From positions 70,596 through 134,595 of IMG/VR virus record IMGVR_UViG_3300024313_000004: DNA of 64,000 nt. One strand, given 5' to 3'. The notes below the pieces were generated by a model. That model was not told the origin of the DNA and ran no database searches. It saw only the letters and a program-made list of their open reading frames with translations. The stretch comes from a virus. Shown here piece by piece: positions 4,703-56,266 of the stretch. Numbering within the stretch: the first letter of the stretch is position 1; every line of letters starts with the position of its first letter. Both the position numbers and the translations under genes were made by a program.

Positions 4703-5164
4703 ATGAGTAAAATTGATAAGATGGAGAAATTCTTAAAAGAAGAGAAGCCTAAAATGGAGAAGGATCTTGAGGTTGGTTTTGATATTGAATCTTTTGAGAA
4801 AGAAGAAGATACGGATACTCTTGGATTTAGATCAGAGTTTGAACCAATCACTAAAGGTAAAGAGAAAGCTCTTAAAAAAGAAATACAAGTAACTACACCA
4901 GGATTAAAGAAGTCTATCAAAAAGTTTGAGGATTTTAAAATCTCTATCTCTGTTGATGAAGTAGTACCAGAAGAAGATGTTGTTATGGGTGGTTTGGCAC
5001 CTAATGAAGAAGAATCTTGTGTTGTTTGTGAATGTAATCCTTGTGAGTGTGGTCAAGAAGAAGGTTGTTCAAATTGTGAATGTAATCCTTGTGAATGTGT
5101 ATCTACATCAGATGATAGTGAAAAGGTTGTCAGATTTGAAGATTTTTTAAAAAGTATAATGTAA
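4703..5164 (+). CDS. Acidic protein with duplicated CECNPCEC Cys cluster and KFEDF/RFEDF motifs
   Basis: ORF track; 10 Cys in about 27 aa; preceded by TAATATATA at 4672. Confidence 0.75.
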   Translation: MSKIDKMEKFLKEEKPKMEKDLEVGFDIESFEKEEDTDTLGFRSEFEPITKGKEKALKKEIQVTTPGLKKSIKKFEDFKISISVDEVVPEEDVVMGGLAPNEEESCVVCECNPCECGQEEGCSNCECNPCECVSTSDDSEKVVRFEDFLKSIM

Positions 5165-5165
5165 T

Positions 5166-5735
5166 ATGAAACATATAAAACAATTTGCGGATTTCTCCGA
5201 AGGTTTAAAGTATCATTTGGTAAATTCTATGCCAATCACTGAAAATGTTTTTAGACCAGGTTCTAAACAATTCTTTTCTATATTGGAAGAAGCTAGAAAT
5301 CTTTTTGATGAGGGTGCTTTAGTACTTGAAGGTATTGATAAAGAATTATACGAAAATACTGAGATTGGGTGCTTTGGTACTTTTAATGGTGAAAGAGTCC
5401 CTTTAGATATTCCAATGGAAGTTGAGGAAGAATTGAATGAGGCTGAATATAAAGGTAAAGAAGTAGAACTTAATAAACCTATGAGAAGTTCAGGTCCTAA
5501 GAAATATCAAGTTTATGTTAAAAATCCAAAAACTGGTAAAGTTAAAAAGATTTCTTTTGGTGATGTTAAGGGTGGATTGACAGCAAAGGTGAGTGATCCG
5601 GATGCTAGAAAGTCATTTGCCGCACGTCATAAATGCTCTACAAAAAAAGATAAGACTACCGCGGGCTACTGGGCGTGTCGTATAAATCGGTACGGTCACC
5701 TTTGGAATAATAAAACCTATCCAGGTTTCTGGTAA
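5166..5735 (+). CDS. Putative internal head protein: N-terminal capsid-targeting-like motif, LNE site, basic C-terminal domain
   Basis: MKHIKQFADFSE; ELNE|AEYKGK; basic KVKKISFGD..RKSFAARHKC domain. Confidence 0.6.
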   Translation: MKHIKQFADFSEGLKYHLVNSMPITENVFRPGSKQFFSILEEARNLFDEGALVLEGIDKELYENTEIGCFGTFNGERVPLDIPMEVEEELNEAEYKGKEVELNKPMRSSGPKKYQVYVKNPKTGKVKKISFGDVKGGLTAKVSDPDARKSFAARHKCSTKKDKTTAGYWACRINRYGHLWNNKTYPGFW

Positions 5736-5779
5736 TCTAAGTGAGTTGGATTTCCTTTTCTATTTTTATATAAACATGT

Positions 5780-6040
5780 ATGAAACCATTTCAAGAAACA
5801 AAAATAAGTGATAATACATTCATCAGAGAGTTTAGTCAAAATACTGATTCTGGAGAAATGACTTGGCATCGTGATAGAGAAAATCGCGTAATAGAATGTA
5901 TTGGAGATACTGATTGGATGATACAAATAGATAATGAACTTCCTAAGAAAATTGAAGGTGAGATACTTATACCGATGGGTATTTATCATAGACTTATAAA
6001 GGGTACTGGTGATTTGAAAATAAAATTATTAAAGTTATAA
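5780..6040 (+). CDS. Small cupin-fold protein
   Basis: TWHRD and ILIPMGIYHRLIKG cupin-like motifs. Confidence 0.6.
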   Translation: MKPFQETKISDNTFIREFSQNTDSGEMTWHRDRENRVIECIGDTDWMIQIDNELPKKIEGEILIPMGIYHRLIKGTGDLKIKLLKL

Positions 6041-54983: not shown

Positions 54984-55146
54984 ATTTATATATATTAAAT
55001 AAACCATCATTAGTTTCAAACGAAATAAATTTCATGTTAACATTTTGTAGGCGAAAATATTTAGAGTAAATCTATACTGAATTAGCAAAAAATAAAGATG
55101 AGTATAGTGGATCCCAACATGTAATATATATAAATAAAAAAATAAA

Positions 55147-55542
55147 ATGCCAATAAAACATTCAACATTATTAAATACCGATTTAGTATGGAGTGAAGAT
55201 GAAATAATCGCGGGCAAAAAGTGGTTAAAATGGGAAGAGGTTACTATAAACTGGGAAAAAATTGATCTCACCTGGGATGAAGTTTTCATATTACTAGAAG
55301 TTGAAAATATAATTCGTGGAGGTAGTGGATATGGCATGAAAGACTATATAGACGGAAATCCCTGGAGAAAAGTAAATGAAAATATTGGTTTAGAAAAAAC
55401 CAATAAATTAATAAAAGTTTATTGTAGAGTAAATGGTGTAGACTATGAAGAATCTAGATACAATATGGATGATATTAAAGTTTCGATAAACGAATTCGAA
55501 AGATTTATCAAAGAAACGGTAAGTGTAAAAGTTAATATTTAA
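55147..55542 (+). CDS. Hypothetical late protein with Trp-spaced repeats
   Basis: KWLKWEEVTINWEKIDLTWDEV; late motif upstream. Confidence 0.55.
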   Translation: MPIKHSTLLNTDLVWSEDEIIAGKKWLKWEEVTINWEKIDLTWDEVFILLEVENIIRGGSGYGMKDYIDGNPWRKVNENIGLEKTNKLIKVYCRVNGVDYEESRYNMDDIKVSINEFERFIKETVSVKVNI

Positions 55543-55558
55543 AAATAATATATATGTT

Positions 55559-56266
55559 ATGGAAAAAGATGTATTTAAATTTGATGATTTTATCAATGGT
55601 GATAAATTTAGTGATTTACAGAAAATGAAATCAGAGCTTATTAAAGAAGGTTTATTCTCTGATAGAGAAGGTTATAGAGAAGAGGAAGAGTATGATAATG
55701 GTATATTTACTAATCACATTCAAAAACAAGATTTTGAAGAAGACGAAGAGATAAACCAGGAATTCAATCCTTATAATTTTTCTACAAAAGAAGAAACTAA
55801 TGATGAACTTGATTTTGTAGATAAAGATGAATTTAACGAAGTAGACGAAGGTGAAATTGAAGACTTTTTAAATATTGACGAGTCGAAGTCTGATACTGAA
55901 GACTATTACAAGTTATTTAAAGATAAGTCTGAAGATTTTATATGTGATATCGCAGTTGAAGGTGTAAATCAAGACGATACAGAAGTTCGACTTATTATAG
56001 AGTCAAGTGATTGGACTCTTATGTTTAAGGGTGAAGTAAAAAACGGGAAATGTATTGTACCTATTAAAAAATTGAATATATTTAATGAAGGTCAAACAGG
56101 TAATATTAAGTTAGAGGTAAATGCAGATGGTAATCTATTTACTCCATGGGAAGATAAATTTATTATTAAAACATCTAAGAAGGTTACTATTAAATTAAAT
56201 GAGAATAAGAAATTTGGAAAGGACACTAAACCCAAAATGGGAGTAAAAGTAAATGTTAAAAAATAA
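55559..56266 (+). CDS. Acidic protein with targeting-like N-terminus and beta-rich C-domain
   Basis: MEKDVFKFDDFING. Confidence 0.55.
   Translation: MEKDVFKFDDFINGDKFSDLQKMKSELIKEGLFSDREGYREEEEYDNGIFTNHIQKQDFEEDEEINQEFNPYNFSTKEETNDELDFVDKDEFNEVDEGEIEDFLNIDESKSDTEDYYKLFKDKSEDFICDIAVEGVNQDDTEVRLIIESSDWTLMFKGEVKNGKCIVPIKKLNIFNEGQTGNIKLEVNADGNLFTPWEDKFIIKTSKKVTIKLNENKKFGKDTKPKMGVKVNVKK

Follow-up and report, generated by a model that had tools for sequence, protein, structure and literature searches.

Why do so many proteins of a single phage, whose bodies mostly share no detectable similarity, begin with much the same short peptide? The question is raised by a 64-kb window of viral DNA (C1:70596-134595, the right-hand part of the 134,595-bp contig C1; coordinates preceded by "C1:" are those of the contig, plain ones those of the window), for which an earlier note had quoted 13 such N-termini, some of them on enzymes, and had likened them to the capsid-targeting sequence of phage T4. 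All 13 translate exactly as quoted, at their positions and on their strands, and the statement that more than a dozen proteins carry the peptide proved too modest, since about 29 open reading frames (ORFs) of the contig and about 93 of the 922 in a complete relative do so, i.e. about one protein in five to ten in this phage type. Judging from the comparisons set out below, it is rather likely that this N-terminal tag represents a greatly expanded capsid-targeting system of the T4 type, loading proteins into the head, and the capsid probably receives in this way dozens of mutually unrelated proteins, including several enzymes. A search of open-access papers returned no description of such a tag in huge phages.

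The contig (GC 29.6%, 161 ORFs called over its whole length) is most likely a fragment of a "Mahaphage"-type huge phage, an assignment based on the identities of its major capsid protein and on its 243 relatives in IMG/VR. This capsid protein is 74% identical to those of LR745206.1 (635 kb) and LR756502.1 (642 kb), both uncultured phages, 52% to that of the 735-kb LR756501.1, 29% to those of Lak megaphages, and 27% to that of PTm1, a cultured Tenacibaculum phage and the nearest cultured relative. LR745206, assembled here from 13 fetched pieces, is the complete genome of 922 ORFs used for comparison throughout.

Occurrence of the tag at true N-termini

A loose tag pattern, [ILMV][KRNTI]x[FY]xx[FYILWH] beginning at residue 2-5, matches 31 of the 161 real N-termini of the contig, against 10 of 725 internal Met sites (1.4%), 0.8% of all internal windows, 17 of 450 out-of-frame shadow ORFs, and 2.8 ± 1.6 position-shuffled N-termini (maximum 9 in 2000 shuffles). 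True N-termini are thus enriched 14- to 23-fold compared with internal sites, and about 11-fold compared with shuffled N-termini. Once membrane-like false matches are dropped, 29 tagged ORFs remain on the contig, some ten solid ones lying within the window; this count is conservative, because the pattern missed the clear tag MKYLRKYNES (47469). The aligned consensus of the 29 tags is M-K-[YNH]-[IL]-K-K-[FY]-[EN]-x-F-[I/N/E]-x-E, with I or L at position 4 in 27 of them, and F or Y at position 7, a residue that the search pattern demands and that is kept in orthologues; carried on to the closing Glu, it can be written M-K-[YHN]-[IL]-K-x-[FY]-x-x-F…[ILVFY]-x-E, with S, A or G coming next. Tags fall into three sub-types of variable length (8-13 residues), and each of the three sub-patterns is enriched 7- to 17-fold among 2028 non-redundant proteins of the clade.

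A strict pattern searched in the DNA, M-K-x-[IL]-K-x-[FY]-x-x-[FY], is found 26 times in LR745206, once in LR756501 (whose tags are in a different register), and neither in the AT-rich PTm1 (225 kb) nor with the reversed control, which indicates that AT-richness is not the source of the motif. In LR745206, the 93 tagged ORFs are scattered along the whole genome. Among the annotated contig proteins, those recognisable as replication, terminase, portal or tail proteins are all untagged; 10 of the 29 tagged proteins have no homologue at all in the comparison set, Pfam families differ where they are found, and searches of about 25 tagged proteins against Pfam and PHROG mostly returned no family. 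A 427-aa protein (29185-30468, (+)) begins MKNLKLELFNFKKNLSLE, a start kept as MKNLKLELFNF in LR745206 and MKNFKLELFNF in LR756501, and looks like it carries a tag in another register. Outside the window, a tagged 612-aa protein (C1:33407-35245, (+)) belongs to a family of 17 relatives in the comparison set (330-660 aa; 15 in LR745206 and two in LR756501), most of which start in a tag-like manner.

Is it the peptide, or the underlying DNA, that is conserved? Selection acts at the peptide level, since synonymous codon choice within tags is that of the genome (Phe TTT 0.70 vs 0.70, Glu GAA 0.71 vs 0.75, Tyr TAT 0.79 vs 0.80), and conserved tag positions swap I with L and F with Y. A DNA repeat or cassette as the source of the tag was ruled out by this genome-like codon use and by a nucleotide conservation that does not extend beyond the amino acids, and AT-rich composition or N-terminal bias by the shuffles (2.8 vs 31) and the tag-free PTm1.

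The terminal Glu and the modularity of the tag

Glu was left outside the search pattern, and its occurrence could be compared between untagged starts and a non-redundant set of 213 tags drawn from the contig, from LR745206 and from 80 related loci. A Glu is present at residues 7-16 in 96% of tags vs 53% of untagged starts, most often at residues 8 and 11; for [ILVMFY]-x-E the figures are 84% vs 30%, and the narrower [ILVM]-x-E is found in 51% of tags. After the tag Glu, S, E, N, F and D are the most frequent residues, and G and A occur as well; the residue three before the first Glu is F, L, I, K or Y.

One example is a class III nucleotidyl cyclase (31326..31985, (+)), which starts with MRWINDFRVFE11 followed by S. 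In an orthologue set of 379 matches, the tag drifts both in sequence and in length (MKWINEFKIFE then A, MKHLKVYKIYE then A, MKYLNNWNQINE then S, MKLKKFEDYIIKE then A), while always ending with [ILVFY]-x-E followed by A or S, and then by a variable linker leading to a conserved KRSxRLLT; E11 is one of just two nearly invariant residues of the tag. In the AlphaFold model, residues 1-27 have a pLDDT below 50 and the fold begins near residue 45, which places the tag, and with it the variable linker (residues 1 to about 40), outside the predicted folded domain.

Similarly, a protein of about 130 aa with an NFACT-R domain, encoded after the capsid gene, carries in relatives tags of 8-13 residues that all end with E right before a conserved [SG]KKDKFP. 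It stands alone, with its tag, in these relatives, whereas the version of the window is a 277-aa fusion (42655..43488, (+)) in which the tag (MKNIITFKKYFE then S) and an extra 146-aa module precede the NFACT-R protein. The former tag of the latter is now internal (VKKLKSIKRDINE159 then S, 43093..43134, (+)), where it forms a predicted internal cleavage site: its aromatic residues are gone and I157-N158-E159 followed by S is kept, as would be expected if the aromatics serve targeting and a hydrophobic residue two positions before Glu (Φ-x-E) serves cleavage. The extra module contains a hydrophobic segment, ELFMAGVTLLGLTNLGYWA. This NFACT-R domain (DUF814-type) directly follows the capsid gene in nearly all related loci with that position readable; domains of this type are associated with ribosome rescue, yet it is located in the head-gene cluster.

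Next to it lies an M28-like peptidase gene (43504..44859, (+)), conserved beside the capsid gene and untagged here, whose orthologues in other lineages bear a 27-44-aa add-on made of tag and linker. Conversely, homologues of an NTase-like tagged protein from outside the clade (Maribacter phage Molly, Synechococcus phage S-H34) are without the aromatic start. Nearly all relatives have tagged genes on the flanks of the capsid gene, and the gene that follows the latter encodes different proteins in different lineages, with the tag retained. These alignments argue that the motif is a separable, modular N-terminal peptide tag.

Tag-like elements in the head machinery

Which head machinery could read such a tag? 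The window contains a T4-type virion module, with genes for a tail sheath (9922-13845, (-)), a large terminase (21009-23153, (+)), a portal (34024-35754, (+); Pfam Portal_T4, 1.5e-58), a prohead protease and a major capsid protein. The protease (phrog_207, 3.8e-30) occupies residues 1 to about 290 of a protein (38679..40775, (+)) in which it is fused to the scaffold region. A single-sequence search against the PDB gave no match, and T4 gp21 was reached only with a profile built from 11 orthologues (PDB 5JBL, "Prohead core protein protease", E = 6.7e-5); the orthologues share invariant His73 and Ser128/129. The start of the protease, MKPVLIVE8 followed by N, parallels the LIE-9 site of T4 gp21 (PMC9026906).

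The scaffold region harbors a tandem repeat (39581..39991, (+); period 42 nt, 9.8 copies) with the 14-residue unit NIAYSEY[ILV]AENLDK, conserved across the clade. This unit displays aromatic-x-x-aromatic-[ILV]-A-E, the same element as in the tag, and its pattern is that of the tag sub-type MIKKYNQFIRE as well as that of YQEFIAE in T4 (T4 sequence from PMC8442874). The density of [ILV]-x-E is 0.071 per residue in the scaffold vs 0.019 genome-wide. A position-weight matrix derived from the scaffold repeat was uninformative when run over N-termini, because its invariant Tyr columns penalise Phe, and reduced-alphabet patterns were used in its place. A second tandem repeat of the scaffold gene (40098-40158) is perfect, with 4.1 copies of 15 nt encoding VEENE repeats within a long acidic stretch.

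The major capsid protein (40863..42566, (+); Pfam Gp23, 5.6e-29) has a propeptide that ends in a tag-like manner with SEYAEFHSINE43 followed by N (40959..40991, (+)), a sequence conserved out to PTm1. No further Glu separates E43 from the folded domain; the propeptide is likely cut here, at a position that corresponds to that of the maturation site of T4 gp23. The tags of two small proteins, one encoded on the contig (C1:2785-3084, (+)) and the other being its LR745206 orthologue (93266-93520), align exactly onto this propeptide end. After the tag, both contain a copy of the capsid N-arm (…NASNTAGMGAVVSAQPG…SGDVGF) and then a basic KKKRKKG tail, so that these capsid-arm paralogues have a 13-residue tag in place of the 43-residue propeptide. 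A further paralogue of the capsid propeptide is found in LR745206 at 291407-291880.

Between the portal and protease genes lie three genes on the minus strand (35791-38505, (-)), including one for a 627-aa nuclease (phrog_13933, 9.4e-147). They are shared with LR745206 (14146-16943 of its piece L001), but not with LR756501, and this insertion is likely a mobile nuclease cassette within the head-gene cluster.

Promoter context of tagged genes

The earlier note had placed many of the tagged genes directly behind a late-promoter motif. The sequence TAATATATA is a real upstream element, as it occurs 54 times, in 38 cases no more than 60 nt upstream of a start. In its form T[AT]ATATATA, it precedes genes for fibre, sheath, large terminase (TerL), baseplate, portal, protease and peptidase proteins, and not those for clamp-loader, SbcD-like, nuclease, methylase-like and glycosyltransferase proteins; its designation as "late" derives from the genes that it precedes. 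Two classes of spacing can be distinguished, the element ending either 4-5 nt (24 contig genes) or 16-30 nt before the ATG, with examples in the window at 25540-25560, 26995-27010, 28120-28135 and 42640-42655. Genes with a promoter ending 4-5 nt before the ATG would therefore be transcribed into leaderless or near-leaderless mRNAs. A gp55-like late sigma factor (30586..30963, (+)) is predicted in the window, supporting a T4-style late transcription.

The claimed proximity to this promoter holds in part: on the contig, T[AT]ATATATA occurs in the 80 nt upstream of 13 of the 29 tagged genes, which is no excess over the 46 of 132 untagged genes (p = 0.39), while the association is strong in LR745206, where 42 of the 186 genes preceded by the element are tagged vs 51 of the 736 others (odds ratio 3.9, p = 6e-9). 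A motif equally common on non-late proteins would have spoken against a tag for the head; the enrichment in LR745206 behind the promoter of structural genes favours such a tag.

A putative route into the head, and the alternatives

How could such a peptide work? The capsid-targeting sequence of T4, MKTYQEFIAE (PMC8442874), requires its residues 4 and 7 for targeting and 8 and 10 for processing (PMC9026906, PMC3012670), and gp21 cuts after L/I-x-E (PMC9026906, PMC8442874). The likeness to T4 drawn in the earlier note is in part borne out by comparison, as the hydrophobic position 4, the aromatic position 7 and the terminal Glu are shared, and a gp21 homologue and a T4-type head appear to be encoded.

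We propose that the tag would be an N-terminal propeptide of about 8-13 residues, working like the T4 sequence. Its residues (I/L at position 4, F/Y at 7, often F at 10) would let a new late protein join the prohead core, by imitation of the scaffold repeat (…Y-S-E-Y-I-A-E-N…) and of the capsid propeptide end (…E-Y-A-E-F-H-S-I-N-E then N). The scaffold-fused, gp21-type protease would cut after the tag Glu ([ILVFY]-x-E, then S/A/G/N/D), as in the scaffold repeats and the capsid protein, thus freeing the cargo within the head while the scaffold is degraded. Through such joining and cleavage, the head would be filled with dozens of unrelated, mostly small acidic proteins, including the class III cyclase and the GNAT, NTase-like and NFACT-R proteins, and part of this cargo may enter the host together with the DNA. 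Scaffold binding, cleavage, packaging and ejection of the tagged proteins are what we infer from sequence, and the injected payload of the earlier note would be pure inference. A bolder formulation, in which aromatic-x-x-aromatic-aliphatic-x-Glu would be a common "currency" of head assembly in Mahaphage-type phages, making up the scaffold repeat, closing the capsid propeptide and, when present singly at an N-terminus in imitation of the scaffold, enrolling 60-90 unrelated proteins per genome into the prohead, thereby constituting the largest known pre-packaged effector arsenal delivered with the DNA, is only tentative and rather doubtful.

Several observations weigh against loading into the head. 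The number of tagged ORFs, about 93 of 922 throughout LR745206, is far above any known set of head cargo, and may point to a broader role; the tagged proteins tend to be acidic (median pI 4.9 vs 5.5), unlike the basic, DNA-associated internal proteins of T4; and in about a third of the tags the first Glu comes at residue 8 (K-x-F-E), which falls outside the L/I-x-E rule of T4 because the residue three before the cut is not hydrophobic. In addition, such tags are absent from PTm1, the closest relative in culture, whose scaffold repeat also differs, the likeness between tag and scaffold repeat relies on a shared reduced pattern, for which the strict position-weight-matrix test was uninformative, and the association with the promoter is not significant on the contig alone.

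Could the tag lead elsewhere? It might be a sorting or docking signal to another phage-made destination or partner, the terminal Glu being recognised and not cut; candidates would be a replication or assembly compartment, a membrane reached via a short amphipathic helix, or a chaperone, unfoldase or protease timing activity or turnover. Tags on about 10% of the ORFs of a 635-kb genome, dispersed genome-wide, on acidic proteins reaching about 660 aa, and misfitting L/I-x-E in about a third of cases, would all suit such a signal. We nevertheless hold it to be unlikely, as both the head scaffold repeat and the final part of the capsid propeptide contain the tag element, small tagged proteins hold copies of the capsid N-arm, the capsid gene of nearly every relative has tagged genes on its flanks, and tags are enriched behind the promoter of structural genes and match the functional positions of the T4 sequence.

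The tag could also be a by-product of gene expression, if near-leaderless late mRNAs constrained the first ten codons or so to be A/U-rich and unstructured, with AAA as second codon, thus yielding starts rich in K, I, L, F, Y and N. Tag residues do use A/T-only codons in this genome of low GC, and tags are enriched 4.4-fold where the promoter ends at most 6 nt before the ATG (10 of 24 such genes tagged vs 19 of 137 others on the contig, and 23 of 80 vs 70 of 842 in LR745206). However, 70 of the 93 tagged genes of LR745206 are outside this near-promoter class and no tag is found on 57 of its 80 near-promoter genes, the motif disappears from N-termini on position shuffling (2.8 vs 31), codon choice is genome-like, I/L and F/Y swaps conserve chemistry and not bases, and PTm1 is AT-rich without the motif. 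Moreover, a constraint on RNA does not account for the conservation of Glu and of a small residue after it, nor for tags that vary in length while the mature start stays fixed, so that we consider this explanation very improbable.

Least credible of all is common descent or recombination, which would make the tags a peptide without present function, left by one paralogous family or by a mobile cassette of promoter and first codons such as has reportedly been proposed for the T-even internal-protein loci: although paralogue families exist (e.g. that of the 612-aa protein, with several tagged members), the tag co-occurs with the near promoter, and the proteins after the capsid gene differ by lineage while remaining tagged, nucleotide conservation does not exceed what the amino acids need, most tagged bodies are dissimilar and of different families, and the pattern is kept while the sequence drifts over lineages with capsid proteins 52-85% identical, hence purifying selection on the peptide.

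Tagged proteins of the window and their annotation

Most of the 13 N-termini listed in the earlier note hold as tags. Besides the cyclase and the NFACT-R fusion, they include a 189-aa protein (5166..5735, (+)) starting with MKHIKQFADFSE then G, and matching phrog_7595 at residues 89-172; a 186-aa protein (13905..14465, (-); MKYLKKFKHFE then N) encoded just upstream of the tail sheath gene, whose LR745206 orthologue is tagged too; a 190-aa protein (24929..25501, (+); MKHIRQFE then SF) with an LR745206 orthologue starting with MKHIRTYENY; and a 51-aa ORF (25558..25713, (+); MKNLKLFENFISDKLIE then D) with only 4 nt between the end of the promoter motif and the ATG. An acidic 136-aa protein (44861..45271, (+); MIKRYNNYIKE then D) is encoded by the conserved third gene after the capsid gene, and 43 of its 56 homologues are tagged.

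Three members of the list are doubtful. The 1046-aa protein at 14469..17609 (-) has an atypical start, MKYINRREDF, without an aromatic at position 7. MSKKVKGFEDF (50115..50687, (-)) is probably no tag and part of the protein body, because this segment lies 10 residues in for most homologues, with the exception of two that start as in the window. Finally, the start MEKDVFKFDDF (55559..56266, (+)) is weak, and the protein has no homologue in the comparison set.

The enzyme names given to tagged proteins are of unequal solidity. Those of the cyclase (Pfam Guanylate_cyc, 8.8e-22) and of the NFACT-R protein (Pfam, 5.9e-16) are confirmed, and that of a 156-aa GNAT-like acetyltransferase (46999..47469, (-); MKYLRKYNE then S) is weakly supported, at 23 bits in Pfam for a cut-off of 20.7 bits, with a PHROG acetyltransferase match at 1.2e-7. 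A 256-aa NTase-like protein (51384..52154, (-); MKLNKFYEFVQ…) remains a good lead, with a protein-atlas score of 0.97 to viral clusters in which 33-45% of members bear PF01909. The "cysteine hydrolase", an isochorismatase-like 216-aa protein (25747..26397, (+); MRYLKTFE then S), is a lead only, with protein-atlas scores of 0.85-0.87 to isochorismatase-bearing clusters. Neither of the latter two had a match in a single-sequence search against the PDB.

Tag-like C-termini

Do tags also occur at the other end of proteins? The three C-terminal copies reported in the earlier note are literally present, at the stops of ORFs 4703..5164 ((+), …VVRFEDFLKSIM), 19286..20131 ((+), …MIKTFENFNWKK, with KKTFESF in an LR745206 orthologue 51% identical) and 26408..26614 ((+), …YVDFLNEIYFYK, weak). 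Within the final 14 residues, tag-like patterns nevertheless exceed the internal rate only about 2-fold (p between 0.006 and 0.11 according to the pattern and genome used), an enrichment too weak for a second class of tags to be claimed.

The chances are about even that these copies represent some other short motif, e.g. sliding-clamp-binding tails of the T4/RB69 type on replication and repair proteins, or mere coincidence. In addition to the low enrichment, two further C-termini in the contig point in this direction: a DNA polymerase fragment (C1:41431-42645, (-)) ends with …MDIFNGFGGI, and a 74-aa protein (C1:40378-40602, (-)) with …KKIDDLFDGFDFD (DDLFDGFDFD), both of which we take to resemble the clamp-binding C-terminus of the RB69/T4 polymerase. 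The 74-aa protein, which has no PHROG match, could be a gp33-like late co-activator. The 19286 protein, with K-T-F-E-x-F kept at the C-terminus of its orthologue, possibly ends with a different motif. On the other hand, T4 Alt and gp21 are processed at their C-terminus too (PMC9026906), which makes C-terminal head-targeting propeptides conceivable.

Implications of a probable head-loading tag

If the tag loads the head, the huge phages of this clade would bring tens of pre-made proteins into their host, which would help to explain part of their enormous gene content and an immediate takeover of the host. Signalling and modifying enzymes delivered in this way (class III cyclase, NTase, GNAT, NFACT-R) would precede any phage gene expression. 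From the tag, proteins carried in the virion could then be predicted by a simple sequence rule in hundreds of genomes of uncultured phages, among them candidates for injected effectors or for anti-defence proteins, and the pair formed by tag and protease could be reused as a protein-packaging tool. The likeness between tag, scaffold repeat and capsid propeptide also suggests that capsid-targeting sequences work, and arise, by imitating the scaffold.

Comparison with known systems

The T4 internal proteins offer the closest parallel. In both cases, a peptide of about ten residues stands at the N-terminus of otherwise unrelated proteins, with an M-K start, hydrophobic or aromatic residues at positions 4 and 7, and a Glu end, MIKKYNQFIRE fitting Y-x-x-F-I-x-E exactly; a gp21 homologue, a Gp23-type capsid protein and a T4-type portal are predicted here as well, and the fast-evolving cargo genes lie behind a late-type promoter. 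The differences lie in scale and in composition: a 135-kb contig has about 29 tagged proteins and a relative of 635 kb about 93, as compared with a handful in T4, and there are three sub-types of tags of 8-13 residues, about a third of which end with K-x-F-E. The candidate cargo is acidic for the most part, with enzymes such as the class III cyclase among it, and the protease is fused to a scaffold made of a tag-like 14-residue tandem repeat.

T-even phages are also said (Repoila et al. 1994, Comeau & Krisch 2005) to possess hyperplastic internal-protein loci, where variable ORFs share a late promoter and the capsid-targeting sequence. Differing cargo bodies behind a conserved tag at one position are likewise found here after the capsid gene, but the tags are not conserved as DNA, and tagged genes occur genome-wide.

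Other giant phages load their heads in a comparable manner. In phiKZ, 201phi2-1 and SPN3US, propeptides are cleaved by gp175/gp245, diverged homologues of gp21 (PMC9026906, PMC10052503, PMC7411985). These phages load about 50 head proteins, many of them paralogous, with N-terminal propeptides cut after Glu, and some are ejected; the tagged family of the 612-aa protein recalls their paralogous inner-body families. Their cleavage motif is however S/A/G-x-E, where the residue three before the predicted cut is hydrophobic or aromatic in the present tags, their propeptides are long and share no short tag, their capsid and portal belong to another lineage, and no inner-body homologues were identified in this clade. 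Lastly, the cargo-loading peptides of encapsulins also address unrelated enzymes into an HK97-fold shell by means of a short terminal peptide. They are usually C-terminal, uncleaved and bound to the shell, with neither scaffold nor protease, in contrast to the tag described here, which is N-terminal and encoded together with both.

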